From NCBI GenBank assembly GCA_964585805.1, contig CAZPFE010000001.1:1-40135 (forward strand): DNA of 40,135 nucleotides, written 5' to 3'. Both the position numbers and the translations under genes were made by a program. Source of the DNA: an uncultured Candidatus Saccharibacteria bacterium (GTDB lineage Bacteria > Patescibacteriota > Minisyncoccia > Minisyncoccales > GWA2-38-27). The notes under the pieces were generated by a model. That model was not told where the DNA came from. It was given only the letters and a program-made list of their open reading frames with translations, and made no database searches. Of this stretch, positions 9,552 to 40,135 are shown in pieces; the stretch's first letter is position 1; every line of letters begins with the position of its first letter.

Positions 9552-10748
9552 TTATTTTATAATTTTAGTCACCACTCCTGCTCCAACTGTCTTTCCTCCT
9601 TCTCTAATTGCAAACCTTTGTTTTTCTTCCAAAGCAACAGGAGAAACTAACTTAATCTTCAAACTTACTGTATCGCCTGGCATTACCATTTCTGTTCCTT
9701 CTGGTAAAGTTACTTCTCCTGTTACATCAGTTGTCCGAATATAAAACTGAGGTTTATAACCATTAAAGAATGGAGTATGGCGACCACCTTCTTCTTTTGT
9801 TAAAATATACACTTCTGCTTCAAACTCTGTATGAGGAGTAACTGTCCCTGGTTTAGCCAAAACTTGTCCTCTTTTCACCTCTTCTTTTTTGAGTCCTCTT
9901 AACAAAATACCAACATTATCACCAGCTACACCTTCATCAAGAGTCTTATTAAACATTTCTATACTTACTGCCACTGTCTGTCTGGTCTCACCCAAACCAA
10001 CTAACTCTAACGGATCATTTGTTTTAACTACTCCTCTCTCAATTCTTCCGGTAGCAACAGTTCCTCGTCCTTCAATTGAGAAAACATCTTCAATTGCCAT
10101 TAAGAACGGTTTATCTTTATCTCTTACTGGTTCAGGAATATAATCATCTAAGGCTTTTACTAACTCTAAAATAGGTTTTGCTGCCTCATCATCAGCTGAT
10201 TGAGCCTCTAATGCTTTTAAGGCAGAACCTTTAATTACTGGAACTTCATCGCCGGGAAACTCATATTTATTTAAAAGTTCTCTTATCTCAGATTCAACTA
10301 ACTCAATCATTTCCGGATCATCTACCATATCTGTTTTATTTAAAAACACTACTATATAAGGAATACCTACTTGACGGGCGAGTAAAACATGTTCTCTTGT
10401 TTGAGGCATAGGACCATCTGGAGCAGAAACAACTAAAATTGCTCCATCCATTTGAGCAGCACCAGTAATCATATTCTTAATATAATCAGCATGACCAGGA
10501 CAATCTATATGAGCGTAATGTCTTTTTTCTGATTCATACTCCAAGTGAGAAACAGAAATTGTTAACCCTCTTTCTCTTTCTTCTGGGGCAGCATCTATTT
10601 GATCAACCGCTTTTTCATCAACATTCATTCCTTTTAATTTTAAAACATGAAGAATAGCTGCAGTTAAAGTAGTTTTACCATGATCAACATGGCCAATAGT
10701 TCCAACATTTACATGAGGTTTTGTTCTTTCAAATTTTCCTTTTGCCAT
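9552..10748 (-). CDS. tuf: Elongation factor Tu
   Basis: GTPase motifs [18 protein letters not shown] and NKTD, with full-length similarity to EF-Tu (398 aa). Confidence 0.97.
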
Positions 10749-29697: not shown

Positions 29698-29723
29698 ATA
29701 TTTCTACTTCTCTATCTTTAAAA

Positions 29724-29732
29724 ATTATAACA
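29724..29732 (-). promoter_or_regulatory. Candidate extended -10 box (TGTTATAAT) upstream of pilM
   Basis: The minus strand reads TGTTATAAT ~27 nt upstream of the pilM ATG. There is no good -35, and TATAAT-like strings are common in AT-rich DNA, so support is weak. Confidence 0.25.
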
Positions 29733-29887
29733 TAAAAATTAAAAACTACTTAATTTTTTCTTTTCTTTTTTTATTTTTCTATCCTCTTTATTCATCTTTT
29801 ATTACTTTATTATACTTAAAAGAAAAAAATTAAAAAGAAACCTTTCTTTTCTTTTCTTCTCTTCTCTTTTCTTATTATCTTATCTTT

Positions 29888-30020
29888 TCCTCCCCCTCCT
29901 TTGGAGGGGGAGGATTAAGGAGGGGAAGTTTTATTCCCCATCCCCCTCCTCACCTCCCCCTTCCCTTTGGGAAGGGGGAGGATTGAAATAAAAAAAGAAG
30001 AGGGACGATTAAGGAGGGGG
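29888..30020. repeat. GC-rich composite palindromic element, copy R1 (modules A + B)
   Basis: Module A is 29888-29914 (TCCTCCCCCTCC-TTT-GGAGGGGGAGGA). Module B is 29953-29981 (CCTCCCCCTTCCC-TTT-GGGAAGGGGGAGG). GATTAAGGAGGGG tails follow at 29913-29925 and 30007-30020. Nearly colinear with 37316-37440. Confidence 0.9.
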
Positions 30021-30095
30021 TATTTTGAATTTTAAATTTTGATCATTTGAATTTATTTAGGATTTAGAATTTTGGATTAAGGCAAGAATAATTAT

Positions 30096-31544
30096 CTATT
30101 GACTTTCACGCCACTTCAAAATTTTAAAATCGCTTTCAGCATAAGGAACAAAAGGCGGCGGATTATAAATTAAATTTGAGTCAACATAATTTTCTCTCTT
30201 TAAATAACCTGAAACAACAAAACTTCCTGAACTCCACTTAGTTCCCACTCTTCCATTGCTTACTATTGCTCCAGTAATTTCCAATTTATCTTTGATATTC
30301 CAATAGTAAAGATTTCTACCAAAATGTCCTTTTTGAGCAATAAATATTCCTTGAAGAATCATATTATTAGGCGAATCAGGAGAAATTAAAATATTCTTTT
30401 CAGCAATAAGAGCTAAACCGTCTGAACCATCTTGATTAACATATTCTATATTCCCTGGCAAAATTATTGTTGTCTCTTTATTAGAGTTAATTAAGTTTGC
30501 GGAAGCAATTGTAATTTTCCCTTTAATCTTTCCTTCTATCCAAAGATTATCTTCAACAAAAACAACCGGACAAGAAGCAGAAATATTAAAAGTAGCATAA
30601 TAATACTCTTTACTTATCCGAAAATAATCATAATGCCATCCTTCTTCCGAACTATAAGCAAAATCTTTTTTAAGACGAGTAATAATTCTCACCTCAATAG
30701 TCCCATCTTGATTAGATATTAAATGATATCCTTTTCCTTGAGGATTAACTTCTTTAGCCGGCGGCAAATAAAGAGATTGTAACTGAGCTTTATCTTTAAT
30801 TTGAGCTAAATCTATAGTAATGCTATCAAAATCAAAAGGAGTTGCTGGAAATTGAAAAAGATTTTTATTGCCATTTGCTGTTGTGAAAACTCCTGGACAA
30901 AAACAAGTTGATCCTTCAAACCAACAACCAGCGCTAATAGGGCAAGGATTACAACCAAAACTAGAAGTGCAAACCCATTTATCTTTAGCCGAAGTAACAA
31001 GTGATTTATTTTCCCCATCCATTCTTATTCCTCCGTTTGAATGATAAAGTCCTCTAATTTCTCTATCAACTCCTGCCCAAACATTATCATTAAGCAAATA
31101 AGCATACTTAGCAACAGAGCTCCGAGCATATAAAACATTTATTTTTCTCTTAACATCTGGTTCATTATTGGTCCAACCAGTAGATGTAACATCTCTACTT
31201 ATTATCTCTCCACAATAATTTTCTGTCTTTTTTTCTAAGGAAAACTTACCTAATAACTGCCCCGAAGGAGAATAGTAATCTTTAGAAAGATTGCAAGAAT
31301 CTCCCAATCCATGATTAAGACACCAGCGATAGTAATTCAAACCTGCCTCAGCAATTTCTAAAGACTCTTTCCAAGCTACTCTCTTTTTTGCCTTCTTTAA
31401 TTCAGTTAAAGTAACATTTAGAATAGCATTTAAAATAATTAAAAAAATTAAACCAAAAACTAAAGAAAGGCTAATTATAATTGAACCTTTTTCTTCTTTT
31501 TCTATTTTTTTATTAAATCTTTTTTCAAATGTATCTAAAATCAT
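30096..31544 (-). CDS. PilX-like minor pilin / pilus-associated Cys-rich protein (482 aa)
   Basis: N-terminal KG|SIIISLSLVFGLIFLIIL hydrophobic segment is followed by AWKESLEIAEAGLNYY (PilX_N-type A..AEAG motif). Contains the Cys-rich stretch WVCTSSFGCNPCPISAGCWFEGSTCFCPG. Lies 3 nt after the preceding prepilin gene. Confidence 0.5.
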   Translation of the reverse strand: MILDTFEKRFNKKIEKEEKGSIIISLSLVFGLIFLIILNAILNVTLTELKKAKKRVAWKESLEIAEAGLNYYRWCLNHGLGDSCNLSKDYYSPSGQLLGKFSLEKKTENYCGEIISRDVTSTGWTNNEPDVKRKINVLYARSSVAKYAYLLNDNVWAGVDREIRGLYHSNGGIRMDGENKSLVTSAKDKWVCTSSFGCNPCPISAGCWFEGSTCFCPGVFTTANGNKNLFQFPATPFDFDSITIDLAQIKDKAQLQSLYLPPAKEVNPQGKGYHLISNQDGTIEVRIITRLKKDFAYSSEEGWHYDYFRISKEYYYATFNISASCPVVFVEDNLWIEGKIKGKITIASANLINSNKETTIILPGNIEYVNQDGSDGLALIAEKNILISPDSPNNMILQGIFIAQKGHFGRNLYYWNIKDKLEITGAIVSNGRVGTKWSSGSFVVSGYLKRENYVDSNLIYNPPPFVPYAESDFKILKWRESQ

Positions 31545-31547
31545 CTT

Positions 31548-32576
31548 TTAAAAATTATCTTTTAAATTTCTCGGCTGAACAAACGAATTCAAATCAAATG
31601 ATTGAGGAGAACGATCAGGATCAACATCAATTTTTAAATGAATTTTTATTAGTTTTGTGTCTGATAATCTAGCTGGATACTCTTCTATTTTATTTCCAGA
31701 AGAATCATAATATTCAAAAATAGGAGAATCGTTTCTAACATAAGAACTTAAAATGTAAAATTTCTCTTGATCAGATGGATATTCCACTGGCGAGGAAGTC
31801 GGTTCAATCACTCCTTTCTTCAGTTTATTATCATCTTCTGGATTCTTTTCTGTCCAAATTAACTCAACTTTCAATTTCATTGAATGATGAGGATTAATCC
31901 AATTGCAATAGGGATCAACTTGCGTACTAGCATCAGCCACAATATTTATATTACCATCCGCTGCTTGATCAGTAATATCAAATGTTAACAAACCTTGCCA
32001 AGTAGCTGGACAATCAGAACATCCTCCTTTACAAATATTACCTATCTTTTCTCCATCTACAAAAATTTCAGCATACTCCCGGGACCAACCAAAATCTCCT
32101 TCAACTGAAACTTTTAATTGAGCGCTTTCTAAAGTCCCGTTCAAAAAATTAGAAAAATTTACACTACAAGATCCTCCTTTCAAATAACTCACACACTCTT
32201 TAGTTTTTGATTTAATCTCTGTCCCTCCTAAAAAATACCTCACCCTTTCTACTTGTCCATCCTTATCAATGTCGCTGTAAAAAATAATTTCATTATCATC
32301 GGCTTCCTCAATAGGATAAGAACCGTCATCTCCTTGAGATATTTCTCTTATTTCTCTTACCATAGTACTAATTCCTCTTTCTGCTTCTTCTATTGCGTGG
32401 GCTTGTTGAGAATTATATCTATAATCTTTAAAAAGAGAAAAAATACCATTTGAAAGAGCAATAAGAATTAAGGAAAAAATCACAATCACTACAAGCGTTT
32501 CTACTAAAGTAAAACCATTTTTCTTTTTTTTGTTATTAAATTTCTTTTTATTTAAATAATTTTTTAACATTTTCAT
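31548..32576 (-). CDS. Prepilin-type N-terminal cleavage/methylation domain protein (342 aa, Cys-rich)
   Basis: KKKNG|FTLVETLVVIVIFSLILIAL is a class III signal with Glu+5. The large C-terminal domain has several Cys pairs. Confidence 0.75.
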   Translation of the reverse strand: MKMLKNYLNKKKFNNKKKKNGFTLVETLVVIVIFSLILIALSNGIFSLFKDYRYNSQQAHAIEEAERGISTMVREIREISQGDDGSYPIEEADDNEIIFYSDIDKDGQVERVRYFLGGTEIKSKTKECVSYLKGGSCSVNFSNFLNGTLESAQLKVSVEGDFGWSREYAEIFVDGEKIGNICKGGCSDCPATWQGLLTFDITDQAADGNINIVADASTQVDPYCNWINPHHSMKLKVELIWTEKNPEDDNKLKKGVIEPTSSPVEYPSDQEKFYILSSYVRNDSPIFEYYDSSGNKIEEYPARLSDTKLIKIHLKIDVDPDRSPQSFDLNSFVQPRNLKDNF

Positions 32577-32630
32577 TATTTTTTAATCTGTAATTGCTGA
32601 CCACTTTGGTAATAGCTTAATTATTATTAT

Positions 32631-32828
32631 CCCTATCCCCCTCCTTACCTCCCCCTTCCCTCTGGGAAGGGGGAGGATTGAAAAATAAAGAGGAGGATGA
32701 TTAAGGAGAGGGAGATTCCCTGCTCTCCCTGCTCTCCCTGCTCTCCCTGCTCTCCCTGCTCTCCCTGCTCTCCCTGCTCTCCCTCTTCCTCCCCCTCCTC
32801 TGGAGGGGGAGGATTAAGGTGGGGGAGG
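32631..32828. repeat. GC-rich composite palindromic element, copy R2 (module B, 9-bp tandem array, module A)
   Basis: Module B is 32648-32676 (loop TCT). (TGCTCTCCC)x7 occupies 32721-32783. Module A is 32787-32813 (loop TCT). GATTAAGG tails are present. Confidence 0.9.
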
Positions 32829-32886
32829 TTCTACTTTTTTATTTCGTCACCAAACTAATTAGATAGCGCATCTAAACAATTAATGT

Positions 32887-34635
32887 CTATTCTGTCCTTG
32901 TCAATAATATAACAGCACTTTTATCTCCAGAAACAGATACGGTTTGGTTTTTAGATTCATAACCAACCATTTGAACATCTAACGAATAATTCCCTTCTTT
33001 TAAAGGAATAAAGTATGTCTGTCCTTTCTCGTCTGTTTCTTGGGTTTTATCATAATCTAAATCTGAATTATATAATCTAACATTTGCTCCAAAAATTGGC
33101 TCTCCACTATCTGCATCTTCCACTTTTATTAAAAGAGAATTTTGAGAACTAATATATAAAGAAACTGACAAATTTGTATCAGGAGACAAACTAATAGGTT
33201 GAGGAGAAGGATCTGTAGATTCCAAATCTAAGTCACTGTCTGGATTTAAAGAAAAAGTATAATTATCCCATTCTAAATTAGTAATATTAACTTCACCATC
33301 TGAATCAGAAATAAAATCCTGATTAAACTTATAAATTGGTTGATCAGATGTATCTGTGCCAATTATTTTTTCTCCTTTAAGATTAAAACTTATATCTCCT
33401 ATCGGCATAGATTGATTATTAACCCAGGAAACTTGCCAATCATAAAGCTTTGGACTAACACCTTCGTCTGAAGTATAAAAACTTGCCTTCACCTTTAACT
33501 TTGAATAAACACTAACATCCAAATTGCTAATATCTATAGGTGAAGAATTGAAACCAAACGAATTGCCAGGCAAATCTATATCTGGAATCAACTTCCATTG
33601 ATCATCAGTATAATATAAAACCTGATAAGTAATTTGCGTATTAGTTGGTTGACTATCATCAAAAGAAAATTCCTGCCATTTTACTAATCCTTCTGGTTCA
33701 ATTGGAATTGAAATAAGAAGTCCTGAATTACTACTATCTTCTAAAACAACAGTTCCATTCTCTAATATAAGATTAGAAATAGCAGATATTTTTTCTTGAT
33801 CAGAAAAAGAATCAGAAAAATTATCTAACCCTTGAGAAGAAAGAGTTTTCACGAAAAAAGAACTAACTTTATCTATTGAAAAACTAATTTCAGTTAATTT
33901 TCCTGTTAAAATTATAGGATTTGGCTTTTCGGGATTTGCTATTTCATCTATACCATAAGTTTCTTCACTGGTATATCCATCCTTAAAAACAACTATTTTA
34001 TAGGTTCCCGGCGCTAAAGAAAAATAATGTTTTCCACTGTCAGGGGTTGCTGTTTTAATTACTTCTCCGGTTTGAGGATTTATAACTTGAATAAAAGGAG
34101 AAGAAACCATTTTACCCGAAGCATCAAAAACAGAAACATAAAGTATTCCTCCAGTATCGGAACATTCTTGAGCCAAATTTTCCGGCGCAATATCAGTAGC
34201 AAGAACCGTTTCTCCCTTTGTTATCCCTGACCAAGAAACCTTGACCTCTACTCTTTTATAATCATTAGGACAATCATCTTCTGGACTGGCTATTCCATCA
34301 GCTGGATCAATCACATAATCTACCCTTTCTTGGATAGTATAAACTACTCCATTTAAAACTTCTGTCTTGGAAGAATCTAAAACTCCATCCGGAAAACCTC
34401 CCTTTATCCCAATAGAATTATAAGGTAAATTTCTTATCCTCTCTAATTCTCCTTCAGCAATAGCTGTAGCAGTCACTTTGTTTTTATTAAAACCAACTAA
34501 TTTTAAAGAAAATTGATAAGACAAAAAAAGAGCTAAAAAAATAACCAAAGTTAAAAAAGAACCTATTAAAACTTCAATTAAAGTAAAACCTTTATTTTTT
34601 GTTTTAATATCCAAACATCTAAACGTCATTATCAA
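32887..34635 (-). CDS. Giant prepilin-type protein (582 aa) with carboxypeptidase-regulatory-like beta-sandwich domains
   Basis: TKNKG|FTLIEVLIGSFLTLVIF is a class III signal. Two CarboxypepD_reg-like segments are present (GILYVSVFDASGK...PGTYKIVVFKDGYTSEE and IKVEDADSGEPIFGANVRLYN...EGNYSLDVQMVGYESK). Confidence 0.75.
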   Translation of the reverse strand: MIMTFRCLDIKTKNKGFTLIEVLIGSFLTLVIFLALFLSYQFSLKLVGFNKNKVTATAIAEGELERIRNLPYNSIGIKGGFPDGVLDSSKTEVLNGVVYTIQERVDYVIDPADGIASPEDDCPNDYKRVEVKVSWSGITKGETVLATDIAPENLAQECSDTGGILYVSVFDASGKMVSSPFIQVINPQTGEVIKTATPDSGKHYFSLAPGTYKIVVFKDGYTSEETYGIDEIANPEKPNPIILTGKLTEISFSIDKVSSFFVKTLSSQGLDNFSDSFSDQEKISAISNLILENGTVVLEDSSNSGLLISIPIEPEGLVKWQEFSFDDSQPTNTQITYQVLYYTDDQWKLIPDIDLPGNSFGFNSSPIDISNLDVSVYSKLKVKASFYTSDEGVSPKLYDWQVSWVNNQSMPIGDISFNLKGEKIIGTDTSDQPIYKFNQDFISDSDGEVNITNLEWDNYTFSLNPDSDLDLESTDPSPQPISLSPDTNLSVSLYISSQNSLLIKVEDADSGEPIFGANVRLYNSDLDYDKTQETDEKGQTYFIPLKEGNYSLDVQMVGYESKNQTVSVSGDKSAVILLTRTE

Positions 34636-34740
34636 TAAATATATTTATTATATATTTTTGGGAAGAGTTTTAAAATATTTAATATTTATTTTCTCTCATC
34701 CCTCCTCTCTTCTTCTTTATTTTTTCCTTCTCTCTTTACT

Positions 34741-35022
34741 CTCTCCTCCCCCTCCTTTTACTTTCTTCTCCTCCCCTCCTCTAGAGAGAGAGGATTAAGG
34801 AGGGGGAGGTTTTTTATTTCCTATCCCCCTCCTTACCTCCCCCTTCCTTTTGGGAAGGGGGAGGATGGAAAAATAAAGAGGAAGATTTATCCTCTCTTTA
34901 CCTTCCTCCCCCTCCTTTGGAGGGAACTCTCTTTTTATCCTCCCCCTCCTTTGGAGGGGGAGGATTAAGGAGGGGGAGGAGAGGGGAAAGAAAAAGAAAA
35001 AGAGGAAGAATCAAGGAGGGGG
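34741..35022. repeat. GC-rich composite palindromic element, copy R3 (multiple intact, truncated and orphan modules)
   Basis: Orphan A left arm at 34744-34755. Degenerate A at ~34767-34794. Module B at 34836-34864 (12-bp stem, loop TTTTG). Truncated A at 34904-34925. Intact A at 34938-34964. GATTAAGGAGGGGG tails follow. Confidence 0.9.
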
Positions 35023-35061
35023 CGATCCCTTCTCTTCTTTTTTTATCGGAAAAAGAAAATT

Positions 35062-36276
35062 CTAAAACCCTTGAACAATACCATAAATTGGTTGAATAAT
35101 AGAAATTGCAAAAAATCCAACTGCCGCTCCAACAATCAACATTAAAAACGGTTCAATAATTGAAGAAAGATTTTTAGTAATATTATCAACTTCTTCTTCA
35201 TAAAAATTGGCCAGGTGCTCCAAAATTTCTGCAGTTTCTCCTGTTTCTTCTCCAACTTTTATCATTTGGATTACCAAAGAAGGGTAAATATCTTTATAAT
35301 TCCCCAAAATATCTGACAATTTGGTTCCTTTTTTAATTTCTTGAGAAGATTTTAATAAAGCCTGACGATAATAAACATTGCCTAATGTATTAGCAGTAAT
35401 TTTTAATGACCTATCAATAGAAACACCTGCTTTTATTAAAGAACTAATTGTTCTTGCTGTCCTAGCTGAATTTGTTTTTTGAATAATAGAAGAAACAAGA
35501 GGTATCTTCAAAAAAATTTTATCTTTAATTTTCCTACCTTGTTCTGTTTTTAAAAACCCTCTTAAAAGAAAAAAAGAAAAAATGAAAAAACTAATAACTA
35601 AAAACCAATACTTAGCCATAAAATTACCACTGGCAATAATAATTCTGGTAGTAAGAGGTAAATTAATTTTTAAATCAGAAAAAACTTGCGATAACTTTGG
35701 AATAACCATTATCATCATTAAAATTCCAATAATAACCATTGCTGTTATTACTACTAAAGGATACATCATTGCTCCCCTAACCCGAGAAACAAGTCGGTGG
35801 TCTTTTTCCATCTGTTTTGCCAAAACAGACAAAACTTCTTCTAAAGAACCCGATTCTTCTCCAACTTTTATCATATTTATAAATAAATCATTAAAAACAT
35901 TTGGATAAAGAGCCAAAGCCTGGGAAAGGTTTTTTCCCTTAACAATTTCCTCTTTAAGATTAAAAATTATTTTTTTAAAATATTTATTTTTTGTTTGTTC
36001 AGCTAAAACATCTAATGCTCGAGGAAGAGAAACGCCGGCGCTAACCATTACTTTTAAATTCCGAGTAAACATTACTTTATCTGTTAAGGAAATCTTTGAA
36101 AGAAAAGGAATGACAATTCCTTTTTTAACAGAAGAAGCGCTCTTTACTTTTGCTGAAATCAATATATATCCTTCCTCTCTAAGTTCTTTTGCTAAATTAT
36201 GCTTATTTTCTGCCTCTTTATAACCAGAAATCGTCTCTCCTTTTAAATTTTTAGCAATATAAAAATAATTAGGCAT
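35062..36276 (-). CDS. pilC: Type IV pilus / type II secretion platform protein PilC (GspF family)
   Basis: 404 aa with duplicated GspF-type cytoplasmic domains and three TM regions (VGEESGSLEEVL and VGEETGETAEIL repeats). Confidence 0.88.
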   Translation of the reverse strand: MPNYFYIAKNLKGETISGYKEAENKHNLAKELREEGYILISAKVKSASSVKKGIVIPFLSKISLTDKVMFTRNLKVMVSAGVSLPRALDVLAEQTKNKYFKKIIFNLKEEIVKGKNLSQALALYPNVFNDLFINMIKVGEESGSLEEVLSVLAKQMEKDHRLVSRVRGAMMYPLVVITAMVIIGILMMIMVIPKLSQVFSDLKINLPLTTRIIIASGNFMAKYWFLVISFFIFSFFLLRGFLKTEQGRKIKDKIFLKIPLVSSIIQKTNSARTARTISSLIKAGVSIDRSLKITANTLGNVYYRQALLKSSQEIKKGTKLSDILGNYKDIYPSLVIQMIKVGEETGETAEILEHLANFYEEEVDNITKNLSSIIEPFLMLIVGAAVGFFAISIIQPIYGIVQGF

Positions 36277-36288
36277 AAATTTATTAAA

Positions 36289-37245
36289 TTAATATTGCTT
36301 AACCGCTATTCCATATTTTCTTGCTTCTTCAGCGTAAAATTTCTGAATTTGGGCGGAAGAAAGAGCTCCTTTATAAATACGAACATTATCAATAGACCCT
36401 TTAAAAGAAAAACTAGTATTACCGCTCCATCCACAACCATATGGATAAAGTGTCCCAATAGATAAAGGTCTATTAGCATCTCCTCTGCTAGGATTCCAAT
36501 TATTAATATTATGTGTACTATTTTTAACTAATTCTCCATTAAAGTATATTTTAACATTTTTATTGCTTCCAGTTAAAACAATGACTATATTATTCCATTT
36601 ATCAACAAAAAGCGCTTTACCACTATTAACAGACCAGCCAGTAGATCCAACTAAATATACAGTTATTGTTTTGTTTGATTTATAGACAATTCTATAATTA
36701 TACTGGCCGCTCCCATTCCATGGTTTTGAAATTAAATCTCCATTCGACTCTCCAGAAAACGGTTTTACCCAAAGAGAAATTGTAAAATCACCACCTCTAT
36801 ATTCGAAATCACTAAAACTATTAGAATAAGGGATATAAACCATATCATTTACTCCATCAAATCTTAATGAATATTTATTTTTGTTCGGAGTATCAGTATT
36901 ATAAATAGCCCCACAAATAGTTCCGTTATGTCCATAACCACTAGAATCTTTAGCAATAGTACCACTTCCTTCATCAAATTCCCATTCTCCAATTAATTGA
37001 TCACCAATAGAATGTTTAACTTCTGCTTCAAATTGTAAACCTGCTGCTCTTTTTGCTTTTTCTCTTGCTCCTTTGAGAGAAACCATTACTATACTTGATA
37101 ATAATCCTATTATTGCTATTACTACTAACAACTCTATTAAAGTAAAGGCCTTTGGTGATAGTGATGATTTTATTGGAAATAGTGTTTTTATTTTTTCTTT
37201 TTGAAAGTTTATTATCTTTTTTAATTCTTTTATCCTTTGTTGCAT
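36289..37245 (-). CDS. Prepilin-type protein with a LamG/concanavalin-A-like lectin domain (318 aa)
   Basis: SLSPKA|FTLIELLVVIAIIGLLSSIV is a pilin N-terminus. Laminin_G_3-like features include LRFDGVNDMVYIP, DFTISLWVKP, WNNIVIVLTG, IYFNGELV and SIDNVRIYKGALS. Confidence 0.75.
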   Translation of the reverse strand: MQQRIKELKKIINFQKEKIKTLFPIKSSLSPKAFTLIELLVVIAIIGLLSSIVMVSLKGAREKAKRAAGLQFEAEVKHSIGDQLIGEWEFDEGSGTIAKDSSGYGHNGTICGAIYNTDTPNKNKYSLRFDGVNDMVYIPYSNSFSDFEYRGGDFTISLWVKPFSGESNGDLISKPWNGSGQYNYRIVYKSNKTITVYLVGSTGWSVNSGKALFVDKWNNIVIVLTGSNKNVKIYFNGELVKNSTHNINNWNPSRGDANRPLSIGTLYPYGCGWSGNTSFSFKGSIDNVRIYKGALSSAQIQKFYAEEARKYGIAVKQY

Positions 37246-37272
37246 AATTCTGTTGATTGCTGTTCTATTTTA

Positions 37273-37562
37273 ATCCCCATCCCCCTCCTTTTTCCTCCCC
37301 TTTTCTCTTTTCCTCTCCTCCCCCTCCTTTGGAGGGGGAGGATTAAGGAGGGGGTGGTTTTTATTCCCCATCCCCCTCCTCACCTCCCCCTTCCCAAAGG
37401 GAAGGGGGAGGATTTGAATAAAAAGGAAGGGGAGGATTAGATGAGATGTTTTTTCTTTCCAAAAGGGAAAGAAGAGAGGAAGGGAGAGAAGAGGAGTTTT
37501 TTCTTCTTAAAAGAATAATAAAAAATTAAAAAGATTCTATCAAGGAGAGGAGGATTGAAGAG
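37273..37562. repeat. GC-rich composite palindromic element, copy R4 (B-flank remnant, modules A + B, purine-rich tail)
   Basis: Flank remnant ATCCCCATCCCCCTCCTTTTTCCTCCCC at 37273-37300. Module A at 37316-37342. Module B at 37383-37411 (loop AAA). Degenerate GGAGGATTAG/GGAGGATTGAAG tails extend to ~37562. Confidence 0.9.
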
Positions 37563-37621
37563 ATATTTTTTCCTTTTTTCTTTTCATTTTGTCGCCGAAC
37601 TGATTGGATAGTGCAAATAAA

Positions 37622-38638
37622 CTATATATTCATTCTTTTTCCAATATAATCAGTAAAATCTGCCAACCGAGATGAATAACCATATTCATTATCATACCAA
37701 GCTAAAACTTTAACAAGATTATCCTTAACCATAGTTTCGTTTAAATCTAAAATTGAAGAATATTCTTCTCCTTTAAAATCAGTAGAAACTAAAGGATCCT
37801 CTTCTACTCTAAATATCCCCTGAAAATTACTTTCTTTTGCCGCTTTTTTAAAAACTTCGTTAACTTCTTCTTTTGAAGTACTTCTTTCTACTTCAACAAT
37901 TAAATCTAACAAAGAAACAGTTGGACTTGGCACTCTAACTGCTATCCCATCTAATTTACCATTAACCTCAGGAATTACTTTGCCAATTGCTTTCGCCGCT
38001 CCTGTGGTTGTGGGGATAATATTTAAAGCAGCTGCTCTTGCTCTTCGCAAATCTTTATGAGGTAAATCCAAAATACGCTGGTCATTAGTATAACTATGAA
38101 CTGTTGTCATAAATCCTTTTACTATCCCGAAATTATCATTTATAATTTTAACGATTGGCGCTAAACAATTAGTTGTACAAGAACCCATATCAACAATTTT
38201 ATCCTGATTAGAATTAAACTTGTCTGCATTAACACCTAAAACAAAACTTGGTATTTCTTCTGATTTTGCCGGAGCAGATATTATAACTTTTTTTGCTCCT
38301 GCTTTTAAATGTTTACTTGCTCCTTCTAAATCTCTAAAATGTCCTGTACACTCCACTACTATATCTACTCCTAATTCCTTCCAAGGCAGTTTTTCAGGAT
38401 CCATTTCTGCAAAAACAGGAATTTTTTTTCCTTCTATATAAATATTTTTTTCATCAAAATCTATTTCTTTCTCATACTTACCGTAAACAGAATCGTATTT
38501 TAAAAGATGAACAAGAGTTTTATTATCAGTTAAATCATTAATAGCGACTACTTCCAAGTTAGGATATCTTTCTATTATTTTTCTAAATACTGGTCGGCCA
38601 ATCCGACCCAAGCCATTAATCGCTACTTTTATAGCCAT
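37622..38638 (-). CDS. gap: Type I glyceraldehyde-3-phosphate dehydrogenase
   Basis: INGLGRIGR Rossmann N-terminus, active site SCTTNCLAP, and C-terminal WYDNEYGYS. Confidence 0.95.
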   Translation of the reverse strand: MAIKVAINGLGRIGRPVFRKIIERYPNLEVVAINDLTDNKTLVHLLKYDSVYGKYEKEIDFDEKNIYIEGKKIPVFAEMDPEKLPWKELGVDIVVECTGHFRDLEGASKHLKAGAKKVIISAPAKSEEIPSFVLGVNADKFNSNQDKIVDMGSCTTNCLAPIVKIINDNFGIVKGFMTTVHSYTNDQRILDLPHKDLRRARAAALNIIPTTTGAAKAIGKVIPEVNGKLDGIAVRVPSPTVSLLDLIVEVERSTSKEEVNEVFKKAAKESNFQGIFRVEEDPLVSTDFKGEEYSSILDLNETMVKDNLVKVLAWYDNEYGYSSRLADFTDYIGKRMNI

Positions 38639-38672
38639 ATTTTTAGTTAATTTTTAATTTTATAATTTAAAG

Positions 38673-38912
38673 TTACTCTTTAATTCCTAATAACCGGCAA
38701 ATTTTTTCTTTATCAAAACCAATAATAATTTCTCCATCAATATCAACCACTGGCACACCCATTTGACCTGATTTTTCCCTCATCTCTTTTTGCGCTTCTT
38801 TATCTTCTAAAATATTAACATCTTCAAATTCAATATTATGTTCTTTTAAAAATTCTTTTAAAGTAAAACAATAAGGACAAGTTGGTGTGGAGTAAATTTT
38901 TATTTTTGGCAT
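38673..38912 (-). CDS. Glutaredoxin-like protein (YruB/NrdH-like, CPYC)
   Basis: 79 aa with IKIYSTPTCPYC, GVPVVDIDGEIIIGFD (cis-Pro and GxD of the thioredoxin fold). Confidence 0.85.
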   Translation of the reverse strand: MPKIKIYSTPTCPYCFTLKEFLKEHNIEFEDVNILEDKEAQKEMREKSGQMGVPVVDIDGEIIIGFDKEKICRLLGIKE

Positions 38913-38952
38913 ACACTCTTTTTTATTTTTTTATTATCTATATTATTTTTTT

Positions 38953-40032
38953 CTAATTACCACAACCTCCACTACCAGAAGAGCCTGACGAATAATCCTT
39001 TGAAAAGCCAATGTCTGCTTGAGCGGTTGTCAATTGTTGATCACAAACACCCGGCTCCTGAGAAAAACCGCAACACAACAACTCTTTTACTGCTTCGGCG
39101 CTTCTTCCTCCAAAATTAAATTCACTTTCTTTATTTCCATTAAGTATTAAAGTGGGAGAACCTGTGATTCCATATTTTTTTTCTAAAGAAAAATCCTCTT
39201 TTGCATACTTCAATCCCCTATTCGCATCACTCATACATTCATCTAATTGAGATAAATTAATACCTACTTTTTGCAAGCAATTTGAACTTTCGCCTTTTTG
39301 AATATAACAAGAAACATAATCCCAATATTTATCTCCTTGCTCCTCTCTAATACAAATTTGTCTTAAATTTTCTTGAGCCTCTTTATCACCATGCATTGAA
39401 GTAATTTTCCCATTGACTATTTCTCCTAAATATCTTACTTTTACATCTTTTATTAAAGAAGGAATTTTTTTATTAATTTCACTTAAAATTCTCTGCATTT
39501 GCAAACCAAAAGGACAATTGCTTACCACAAAAGCTTGTAATAAAGGAGTATCTAATTTCTTAATTGCTTGGCAGGATTCTTTTGAGTTTTTCTTATTATT
39601 AGTAGAATTATTATCAGAATTATTTTGATTACTTGCTAAATTTTCTTCTATATTAAAACGTTCAGGATAAAAATACTTACCATCTAAAGTAACATAACTT
39701 GTAAGATTGGTCCCCCCTAAACTAACCGTTACCTTATACAAACCTTTATCTACAGAATCTTTTTCTACATTTACTAAAGAAACTTTTAACCTTCCTTTAA
39801 GAAGGATGTTATTAATAAAATTAACCGTTCTTTCACCTATTTCTTGAGGAGGCAAAACATTCTTTTTCTCTTTTTTATAAAAAAACCAACCAGCTGTTGC
39901 TAATCCTCCTAAAACAAAAATTAAAAGTAAAAGTAAAACTATTTTTCTTTTCTTTTTTTTAGTTAAAAATTTAGCATTGTTTTCTTTCTCTATTTTTGAA
40001 TTTGACTCTGAAGATATATTTTCTTTAAACAT
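38953..40032 (-). CDS. Membrane-anchored DsbA-like thioredoxin-fold protein with monothiol CPFG motif
   Basis: Has an N-terminal TM and an Asn/Ser-rich linker. The DsbA/Thioredoxin_4-like pattern is FVVSNCPFGLQMQ...QGDKYWDYVSC...KYGITGSPTLILNG, which includes the cis-Pro. Gly occupies the second position where the CxxC Cys is expected. Many additional Cys residues and a Gly/Ser-rich C-terminus. Confidence 0.6.
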   Translation of the reverse strand: MFKENISSESNSKIEKENNAKFLTKKKKRKIVLLLLLIFVLGGLATAGWFFYKKEKKNVLPPQEIGERTVNFINNILLKGRLKVSLVNVEKDSVDKGLYKVTVSLGGTNLTSYVTLDGKYFYPERFNIEENLASNQNNSDNNSTNNKKNSKESCQAIKKLDTPLLQAFVVSNCPFGLQMQRILSEINKKIPSLIKDVKVRYLGEIVNGKITSMHGDKEAQENLRQICIREEQGDKYWDYVSCYIQKGESSNCLQKVGINLSQLDECMSDANRGLKYAKEDFSLEKKYGITGSPTLILNGNKESEFNFGGRSAEAVKELLCCGFSQEPGVCDQQLTTAQADIGFSKDYSSGSSGSGGCGN

Positions 40033-40082
40033 ATATAATTTCTATTTTTTAATTTATAATTGCCAACCAATTTTGATTATTT

Positions 40083-40135
40083 TAATCCCCATCCCCCTCC
40101 TTTTTCCTCCCCCTTCCCAAAGGGAAGGGGGAGGA
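40083..40135. repeat. GC-rich palindromic element, copy R5 (module B), truncated by the window end
   Basis: AATCCCCATCCCCCTCCTTTTTCCT flank (matches 37272-37296 exactly; the next bases also agree apart from a one-C difference in the C-run) followed by module B at 40106-40134 (loop AAA). Confidence 0.85.

Follow-up and report, generated by a model that had tools for sequence, protein, structure and literature searches.

We wanted to know what fills the long noncoding spacers of a pilus locus in a bacterial genome of ~30% GC, where almost pure G/C palindromes recur from spacer to spacer. The locus lies in a 40,135-nt stretch of DNA, from here on the window (contig CAZPFE010000001.1 of assembly GCA_964585805.1, positions 1 to 40,135 of the forward strand), from an uncultured Candidatus Saccharibacteria bacterium, a member of the Patescibacteria or candidate phyla radiation (CPR). 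An initial annotation, made from the letters of the window alone, had described two hairpin modules, A and B, and had offered for them roles ranging from a miniature mobile element to RNA processing sites, protein-binding or DNA uptake sequences, and non-B DNA. We conclude that the repeats are probably insertions of a two-layered family of small noncoding mobile elements, abundant in some Patescibacteria and composed of a miniature inverted-repeat transposable element (MITE) and a G/C cargo. Full-text literature searches, including those for CPR, Patescibacteria, and Saccharibacteria, returned no description of these repeats, and the family is, as far as we could find, previously undescribed.

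Results

Hairpin modules in the spacers of the window

Module A, which consists of TCCTCCCCCTCC, 3 nt, and GGAGGGGGAGGA, is present as exact copies at 29888-29914, 32787-32813, 34938-34964, and 37316-37342. Module B, CCTCCCCCTTCCC and GGGAAGGGGGAGG separated by 3 nt, is exact at 29953-29981, 32648-32676, 37383-37411, and 40106-40134 and has one stem mismatch at 34836-34864. The modules are real, as the initial annotation held, with four perfect A copies and five B copies (one with the mismatch) in five spacers after 29.7 kb; half-sites at up to one mismatch number 23 and 10 in the window, for which dinucleotide shuffles expect 0.15 and 0.02, and the observed counts were reached in none of 100 shuffles. 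The flanks that the modules had been said to share are also present (CCCCATCCCCCTCC precedes B, and ATTAAGGAGGGGG comes after A), and 29888-30020 is colinear with 37316-37440. The claim that the first 29 kb lack any copy holds for exact copies, none of which was found there in an exact search; four half-sites at one mismatch do occur in that part, all within coding sequence. As described earlier, the modules are noncoding: the five hairpin spacers contain no genes and are flanked by minus-strand genes, and the window elements of 282 and 365 nt delimited below hold short chance open reading frames (ORFs) only. Further, the A and B hairpins form the centers of larger nested palindromes, which have C-arms and G-arms on the outside, and terminal inverted repeats (TIRs) also bound these palindromes in three of the spacers.

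Transposon ends, target duplications, and an autonomous element

The ends of the family are imperfect inverted repeats of ~26 nt, TGTAATTGCYAACCAMTTYGGTAAC … GTTACCRAAKTGRTTGGATAGYACA, of which the left and right ends align mutually and which have the short form TGTAATTGC…GGATAGYACA in the window. Copy boundaries are sharp at TGT and ACA, also between metagenome-assembled genomes (MAGs) and the window. For example, two loci of one MAG, L077 and L025 (loci are given here by L numbers), are 93% identical over 234 nt, from exactly TGTAATTGC to exactly …GGATAGCACA, and the left end is common to other MAGs and to positions 32589, 37251 (degenerate), and 40055 of the window, with unrelated sequences upstream. 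Full-length copies bear 7-bp direct repeats of local sequence, such as GATAAAT, TTTTATT, CCTTATT, and CATTAAA/CATTATA. We examined target duplication in 37 distinct elements of at most 450 nt, with permuted pairings and flanks shifted by 7 nt as controls. The 7-bp flanks were identical at all seven positions in 14 elements and at six positions in another 9, so that 23 of 37 (62%) matched at six or more, compared with 2.3% of the permuted pairings and 0 of 37 with shifted flanks. There were 22 different duplicated 7-mers with the target preference nWTWAWn, and element sizes ranged from 82 to 510 nt. The sharp shared ends together with the 7-bp duplications indicate that the copies spread by transposition and do not represent a conserved regulatory module.

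An autonomous element with the same two ends was found at L140 3897-5070; it is 1174 bp long and encodes a DDE transposase with an rve/rve_3 integrase core. Insertion sequences (ISs) of the IS481 family have TGT…ACA termini and duplicate 2-15 bp of target, mostly 6 bp (PMC10045372), and the TGT…ACA termini and 7-bp duplication of the present family fall inside this published range. Judged by its sequence, the autonomous partner appears IS481-like. Elements of 250-620 nt keep remnants of the transposase C terminus and are deletion intermediates. Overall, the family combines the properties of a MITE, namely small noncoding copies, sharp TIRs, a duplication of fixed length, an autonomous element with the same ends, and presence or absence at orthologous sites (see below). 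The proposal of a miniature mobile element resembling repetitive extragenic palindromes (REPs), bacterial interspersed mosaic elements (BIMEs), or Correia elements was therefore right in kind, given the TIRs, the target-site duplications, the dispersed copies, the autonomous IS, and the empty orthologous sites.

Copies in other genomes and their neighbors

A scan of one genome per species for the hairpin pattern CCTCCCCCTYC-N3-7-GRAGGGGGAGG returned at least 99 loci. Among the matches listed, those in high-GC genomes were single and chance-like, and the low-GC matches comprised 54 loci from 12 CPR MAGs (including AUK067, AUK069, CALGBJ, several labeled Saccharibacteria, and one Paceibacterota). 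With the window added, these 55 low-GC sequences hold 94 hairpins, up to seven per 5 kb, and 76 of the 94 listed hairpins were intergenic when ORFs were called by a crude method. Use of the left end to scan metagenomes gave 92 more loci that carry the TIR, all of 25-44% GC.

The genes that neighbor the repeats elsewhere are gyrA, gyrB, recA, ligA, leuS, metK, and genes for GAPDH, tRNA synthetases, and ribosomal proteins. We therefore rejected a pilus-specific element: the modules do lie in the pilus locus of the window, as stated in the initial annotation, but the link is incidental because the same repeats flank housekeeping genes in other MAGs. The suggested link to a pilus or to DNA uptake fails for the same reason, and the coding DNA of the window contains no exact copy of the box from which the stems are built. 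Relative to codirectional genes, 11 elements have the same and 12 the opposite orientation, and copies lie 0-50 nt from gene ends. The window shares 70% GyrA identity with one hairpin-bearing MAG and 66% GAPDH identity with another, and homologues of its PilC protein are named Parcubacteria, Nealsonbacteria, and Pacebacteria, which places the source among the Patescibacteria. A phage origin was also rejected, as viral contigs gave one hairpin match and no TIR match.

Presence, absence, and synteny among relatives

In four related loci (L196-L199; 65-67% PilC identity), the order pilB-pilC-pseudopilin is kept, and no hairpin is present in 15-21 kb; their pilC-pseudopilin spacer is 87-105 nt long, AT-rich, and hairpin-free. 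In L010, a core of the kind described below occupies a 139-nt spacer upstream of gyrA, for which the syntenic gap in the window is 11 nt. We noted that an unrelated perfect palindrome, GTTGCTTAACCAGGTTAAGCAAC, adjoins this solo core (L010 3090-3125).

No precise empty site for a window copy was seen in a very close relative. The relative L194, with 97% PilC identity, has the insertions too, yet lacks a block of ~89 nt with A units in the pilC-pseudopilin spacer; the flanks of this spacer are nearly identical to those in the window, and the ~89-nt indel is bounded by repeated C-boxes. Further, synteny between the window and L194 ends within elements on two sides (window 32577-32886 and 37246-37621; L194 9881-10191 and 5314-5654). 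Upstream of the pilin gene, the window has GAPDH and L194 has DHH/PGK, and downstream of the pseudopilin gene, the window has a pilin-like gene and L194 a thioredoxin-reductase-like gene. These breaks are due either to repeats that recombined or to a chimeric join in assembly. Separately, the LamG-domain pilin is a single ORF of 318 aa in the window (36289-37245) and two ORFs of 186 and 103 aa in L194 (5655-6215 and 6243-6554); a frameshift or pseudogene in one of these genomes could account for this.

The G/C core is separable from the MITE backbone

In most genomes, the canonical core reads CCCTCCCCCACC-TTAAT-CCTCCCCCTCCC-NNN-GGGAGGGGGAGG-ATTAA-GGTGGGGGAGGG, that is, C-arm, TTAAT, C-box, 3-nt loop, G-box, ATTAA, and G-arm. 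Every part of it is a variant of the near-mirror-symmetric box CCWCCCCCWCC or of its complement GGWGGGGGWGG, and boxes are 11-14 nt long with “dialects” by lineage (CCTCCCCCTCCC, CCTCCCCCTTCCC, and CCCTCCCCCACC). In the window, this core is split: A has kept the G-arm and B the C-arm, and the G-arm, T-run, and C-arm that lie between them form a third hairpin. Loops occur in complementary forms (TTT/AAA and TCT/AGA) and are flipped even among co-oriented copies. Short tandem repeats of 7-9 nt adjoin the arms, TACTTCC and CGCTTCA in AUK067 and TTTGAATT-like runs in several genomes.

Minimal elements of 82-119 nt possess the ends and the duplications but no G/C hairpin, other elements hold unrelated inserts, and the core is also found in at least two further backbones whose ends are different; core and MITE backbone are thus separable. 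In the MAG CAYYED, hairpin arrays lie between different inverted ends, GGTTAT…ATAACC (GGTTATTGGCYAAATGA…ATATARCC), and this second MITE-like backbone (L016 5600-5945, L073 2022-2185, and L041 150-395) is flanked by 6-bp duplications, CCTAAT in L016 and ACTAAT in L073. In AUK069, the core is central in a palindromic repeat of >250 nt, of which there are at least seven copies (L012, L043, L046, L053, L067, L084, and L011); here, AT-rich runs with a period of 7-8 nt (TTTTGAAT and AGATTTA) adjoin it, followed by long inverted outer parts, and most contigs with this repeat start or stop within it. In the GGTTTGATTGTTATTAT subfamily, the core is always at one fixed position, and a core-less copy of this subfamily was sought and not found. 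Hitch-hiking of the core certainly occurs.

Three further arrangements were noted. L004 7630-8000 has five units of 38 nt in tandem, in each of which a CTCCTCCCCCTTGAAGAGGAGGAGGA hairpin precedes GGTTTTTTAT, and resembles stacked mini-terminators. The loop of the central hairpin hosts an AT-rich insert of ~110 nt in L105 (3720-3986) and L182 (2174-2440), and it hosts a small nested palindrome, CCGACTTATGTCGG, in L189 (1547-1724 and 4888-5066). Hairpin loops thus seem to be insertion hot spots.

Anatomy of the five spacers

Only minus-strand genes are present between 28.5 and 40.1 kb. They encode, in the first half of the gene order, a DsbA-like protein, a glutaredoxin-like protein, GAPDH, a pilin with a LamG domain, and PilC, and in the second half a pseudopilin with a CarboxypepD_reg domain, a pilin-like protein, the product of an unknown gene, PilM, PilN, and PilO. 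The five long gaps between these genes measure 103 to 426 nt. A search with an nhmmer TIR profile gave matches in the window at 32589, 32870, 37615, and 40057.

The complete MITE-like element at 32589-32870 (plus strand, 282 nt) has the left TIR TGTAATTGCTGACCACTTTGGTAATA (32589-32614), a C-arm (32631-32644), a perfect 9-nt tandem repeat (TCCCTGCTC)x7 (32717-32779), a G-arm (32815-32828), a T-run (32835-32844), and the right TIR …GATAGCGCA (32845-32870), and its TIRs match the profile at E = 1.9e-06 and 4e-05. When it is aligned with L077, L086, L034, and L054, similarity begins exactly at TGTAATTGC. Without this insertion, which is common to L194, the stop-to-start distance would be ~21-28 nt. 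The element at 37251-37615 (plus strand, 365 nt) is MITE-like with a degenerate, internally deleted left end, TGTTGATTGCTGTTC… (37251-37275), that aligns with the family consensus; it contains C-arms at 37275-37288 and 37366-37379, a G-arm at 37344-37357, a T-run at 37358-37365, and the right TIR …CTGATTGGATAGTGCA at 37590-37615 (E = 2.2e-06). It follows the GAPDH stop by 6 nt and precedes the pilin start by 5 nt, and its triple hairpin folds at about −80 kcal/mol. The left part of a further copy (plus strand, E = 0.0026) runs from 40055 to 40135, where it is ended by the window end, and has the left TIR TATAATTGCCAACCAATTTTGATTATTTTAA with an internal deletion of ~10 nt (40055-40085) and a C-arm (40087-40100); it lies 22 nt upstream of the start of the DsbA-like gene. 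Minus these three elements, the stop-to-start gaps are ~10-30 nt, the usual spacing in this genome.

The window end falls within a B copy, and an independent Logan contig, L001, which has the same TIR as the 40055 copy, likewise stops in the same repeat. The earlier notion that the contig breaks at a repeat agrees with other MAGs, in which at least 14 contig ends lie within ~100 nt of a hairpin at listed positions.

The remaining two spacers are composite arrays. The spacer at 29698-30095, a composite G/C-palindrome array between the unknown gene (30096-31544) and pilM, has a middle hairpin (G-arm 29916-29928, T-run 29929-29935, C-arm 29936-29949), a distal G-arm at 30010-30020, and AT-rich, TTTGAATT-like repeats of ~8-nt period at 30021-30085. 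Its A-middle-B part folds into three hairpins at about −83 kcal/mol on either strand, the A-B doublet is ~80% identical to L065, L093, L187, and L023, and the AT-rich flank is also found in AUK069, L019, L068, and L173. The spacer at 34636-35061, between pilC and the pseudopilin gene, has a degenerate A at 34765-34790, a partial A at 34904-34924, a hairpin made of a G-arm (34796-34809), a T-run (34810-34819), and a C-arm (34819-34832), and further G-arms at 34966-34979 and 35012-35022. These two arrays may be older copies with decayed AT-rich ends, or their cores may have arrived otherwise.

RNA structure, nucleic acid motifs, and rejected identities

Folding gave −25.3 kcal/mol for A alone, −27.6 kcal/mol for B alone, and about −80 kcal/mol for the trios, with z = −5 to −6.5 on both strands. 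Mismatches in the stems on the sense strand are G·U in 163 and A·C in 132 cases (ungapped extension). Rfam searches in gathering and E-value modes passed only three tRNAs in the window, and the hairpins were subthreshold to miRNA-type models. The statement that the modules are not followed by T-runs proved incorrect: after the G-rich arm that follows A, the plus strand carries TTTTATT (29929-29935), TTTTTTATTT (32835-32844 and 34810-34819), and TTTTTATT (37358-37365). This strand is antisense to the genes. We rejected ordinary intrinsic terminators, as the T-runs in the window are antisense to all flanking genes and the orientation in relatives is 11:12.

Six quadruplex motifs of the G3+N1-9 type were found in the window, all inside elements and all on the minus (gene-sense) strand, and every G-arm adjoins a complementary C-arm. 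The repeat at 32717-32779 reads (GGGAGAGCA)n on the gene-sense strand, a microsatellite of the G-quadruplex type; GGGAAGGGGGAGGTGAGGAGGGGGATGGGG and (GGGAGAGCA)n are candidate sequences for a G-quadruplex or i-motif as opposed to a hairpin. A motif resembling a Shine-Dalgarno sequence (GGAG/GAGG/AGGA within 20 nt upstream of the start) precedes 3 of 48 window genes (the 48 include, for example, the starts of 507-1061 and 9552-10748), so the organism apparently does without Shine-Dalgarno initiation, although its repeats are full of GGAGG and CCTCC. Mimicry of Shine-Dalgarno or anti-Shine-Dalgarno sequences by these boxes (the sense RNA has CCUCCUUA) is accordingly unlikely.

Several other identities were rejected. 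A sigma-54 or sigma-70 promoter reading of GCAATTACA next to start codons does not hold, as this motif forms the tip of the left TIR; in L077, it stands after a stop codon on the other strand. TIGR-Tas arrays were rejected because the units have no variable spacers. The earlier statement that the modules are not arrays of clustered regularly interspaced short palindromic repeats was upheld, with irregular spacing, no unique spacers, and copies scattered over the locus. DNA uptake sequences would not be expected to be without an exact box in the first 29 kb and to have all window copies in five spacers. The family is not the Correia element, from which it differs in TIR sequence, in its 7-bp duplication, and in its CPR host. 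It has the general character of REPs, being short GC-rich extragenic palindromes in many copies that are single, paired, or clustered, but is not a REP in the strict sense because the stem is flanked by TTAAT/ATTAA or by arm boxes and has no 5′ GTAG head.

Discussion

We propose that the MITE layer would be mobilized in trans by the IS481-like DDE (rve) transposase of the 1.17-kb autonomous element with the same ends, would insert into short AT-rich intergenic targets (nWTWAWn), and would duplicate 7 bp there. In the window, this layer would comprise 32589-32870, 37251-37615, and 40055 to the end, whose insertion would have turned operon gaps of ~10-30 nt into spacers of 300-400 nt. In the cargo layer, the nested G/C palindrome may multiply locally, split, flip its loop, and lose units by slippage or recombination between boxes, from which the doublets of A and B and the arrays of the five spacers would have arisen. 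As for the host, intercistronic RNA hairpins of −25 to −28 kcal/mol, or about −80 kcal/mol for a trio, could obstruct exonucleases or be targets of RNase III, and genome rearrangements could take place between dispersed copies. Effects on transcripts are known for REP and Correia elements; in the present family, effects on RNA stability, processing, or termination are plausibly side effects and not the reason for the repeats.

Several observations weigh against this two-layer reading. Most perfect hairpins in other MAGs lie outside the TIR backbone (only ~19 of 94 in the listed genome loci are within 450 nt of a TIR), so the core itself may spread by other means. A tblastn search with the L140 protein found no transposase among the genome loci retrieved, and the window has none either. 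L140 is itself the only full-length autonomous copy seen; the best NCBIfam match of its transposase is IS481 (NF033577) at 189.6 bits, under the curated cutoff of 224 (IS3 scores 72.7), and its frame is split at an A8 run into ORFs of 109 and 210 aa, which could reflect a pseudogene, a homopolymer error, or slippage-dependent expression. Within the window, the nhmmer TIR profile gave no match in the spacer at 29698-30095 and no clear TIR in that at 34636-35061, and the target duplications are decayed: the 7-mers flanking 32589-32870 (TTTAATC and TCTAAAC) agree in 5 of their 7 positions, which fits a decayed duplication, and those flanking 37251-37615 match at 3 of 7, with no intact duplication left. 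Finally, the box is strongly conserved across divergent lineages, and B-type units are antisense in 22 and sense in 8 cases, a possible bias among copies that are not independent; both would fit sequence-specific recognition or a host function.

Another view, which we regard as possible though doubtful, is that the C-box palindrome is a self-propagating or specifically recognized DNA/RNA module, present in several Patescibacteria lineages, that was captured again and again by unrelated MITE backbones and is driven by an enzyme or a binding protein instead of passive hitch-hiking and slippage, as a bacterial counterpart of mitochondrial GC clusters or of REPINs, which are paired REPs. In a related form that we consider about equally tentative, and which is compatible with the MITE layer, the G/C palindromes are REP- or REPIN-like with an enzyme of their own (for example, a Y1 HUH transposase of the RAYT type) and have invaded MITEs secondarily as safe landing sites. 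The core is indeed found alone and in at least three unrelated backbones, its box is conserved across MAGs whose GAPDH or GyrA is only 66-70% identical to that of the window, its copies may be single, paired in inverted orientation, or clustered, in the manner of REP, REPIN, and BIME, and its loops host further insertions (L105, L182, and L189). However, no HUH or Y1 domain was among the 25 commonest Pfam families of the 8-kb pieces around the matches, the 5′ GTAG of REPs is missing, the one clean indel is bounded by C-boxes and resembles slippage or recombination rather than transposition, and the core keeps a fixed position in the GGTTTGATTGTTATTAT subfamily. It appears improbable that the hairpins exist mainly for a function of the host at the RNA level, as terminators, 3′-end stabilizers, or RNase III sites, with mobility as a secondary trait. 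The stems are very stable, with the z-scores given above on both strands, the core is followed on the left-to-right strand of the MITE by TCTATTTTTTATTT as in a terminator, the listed hairpins are mostly intergenic (76 of 94), and REP and Correia elements offer a precedent; but all T-runs in the window are antisense to genes, the MITE orientation is balanced at 11:12, termination needs no identical stems genome-wide and across lineages, relatives do without hairpins at the orthologous sites, and no Rfam family reaches threshold.

The other explanations are far less probable than these. Inverted pairs of uptake sequences are often found in terminators of Neisseria and Haemophilus, and this precedent, together with a conserved 11-nt box with lineage dialects, could suggest that a protein recognizes the C/G boxes, which would be either uptake sequences for a competence-like pilus or binding sites of a nucleoid or regulatory protein. 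We consider this very unlikely, as 29 kb of mostly coding DNA has no exact box, copies cluster in few spacers, other genomes show no association with pilus genes, and relatives with the same pilus locus lack boxes entirely. Hardly more credible is an action of the elements via non-B DNA or RNA (G-quadruplex, i-motif, or H-DNA) that modulates transcription or replication, or via phase variation by the tandem repeats: the six quadruplex motifs, including (GGGAGAGCA)n, do all lie in elements on the gene-sense strand and the boxes are near-perfect mirror repeats, but the adjoining complementary C-arms favor a hairpin or duplex, and the TACTTCC and CGCTTCA tandem repeats of other MAGs are not quadruplex-forming. 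That the tracts are assembly or low-complexity artifacts, as the initial annotation had considered, can practically be dismissed. The window and many contigs end in copies, and the synteny breaks between the window and L194 fall within elements and are possibly chimeric joins; however, consistent TIRs and site-specific duplications recur in independent NCBI, ENA, JGI, and Logan assemblies from many samples, and orthologous copies are present in both the window and L194.

We therefore favor a mobile family of a MITE layer with a G/C cargo. CPR genomes are viewed as streamlined, with little mobile DNA. At this one CPR locus, the MITE family and its cargo make up essentially all long intergenic spacers, and insertions split formerly tight operons. 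Module content varies among genomes with 97% identical PilC, and elements coincide with synteny breakpoints and with contig ends, the latter being relevant to the assembly quality of MAGs. It follows for annotation that the hairpin spacers should not be taken for regulatory regions of the pilus genes. Further, the family provides a tractable pair of transposase and ends from an uncultivated phylum. We see its interest mainly in CPR genome dynamics, annotation, and assembly.

Several known systems resemble the family in part. The GC clusters of yeast and other fungal mitochondria are G/C-rich palindromes in AT-rich noncoding DNA that are polymorphic between close relatives, and they are alike in being scattered over the noncoding DNA of a compact genome; they differ in belonging to organelles and in their unrelated sequences, and we know of no association between them and a TIR transposon. 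The BOX elements of Streptococcus pneumoniae (boxA-(boxB)n-boxC) are also modular, with a variable number of units and a stable structure, and are intergenic and dispersed, but there is no sequence similarity, and the present family has an autonomous IS, clear target duplications, and modules that are G/C palindromes. REP, BIME, and REPIN elements with RAYT in Enterobacteria and Pseudomonas are likewise short GC-rich extragenic palindromes of high copy number that occur as singles, doublets, and clusters, break assemblies, and can mediate rearrangements; here, by contrast, there is no GTAG head, and part of the copies travel in a transposon with TIRs and target-site duplications, as REPs do not. 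With IS481, the family has in common the rve DDE transposase of L140, the TGT…ACA termini, and a duplication within the range of 2-15 bp (PMC10045372); it differs in that the L140 score is under the curated cutoff and in that the duplication is 7 bp and not the commonest 6 bp. IS-derived MITEs such as the Correia element (Correia repeat enclosed element, CREE) of Neisseria, RUP of S. pneumoniae, and MITEAba12 are small and noncoding, have TIRs, duplicate their target, and occur as many intergenic copies in either orientation alongside an autonomous IS with the same ends, with a long RNA hairpin as a possible fold, all of which applies to the present family. Correia elements, however, are 100-155 bp long, have 26-nt TIRs, and duplicate TA, and RUP is tied to IS630, whereas the present family has IS481-like ends and transposase and a 7-bp duplication. 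What further sets it apart from these MITEs is its CPR host and its interior, an almost pure G/C nested palindrome of homopurine/homopyrimidine character within a ~30% GC genome.

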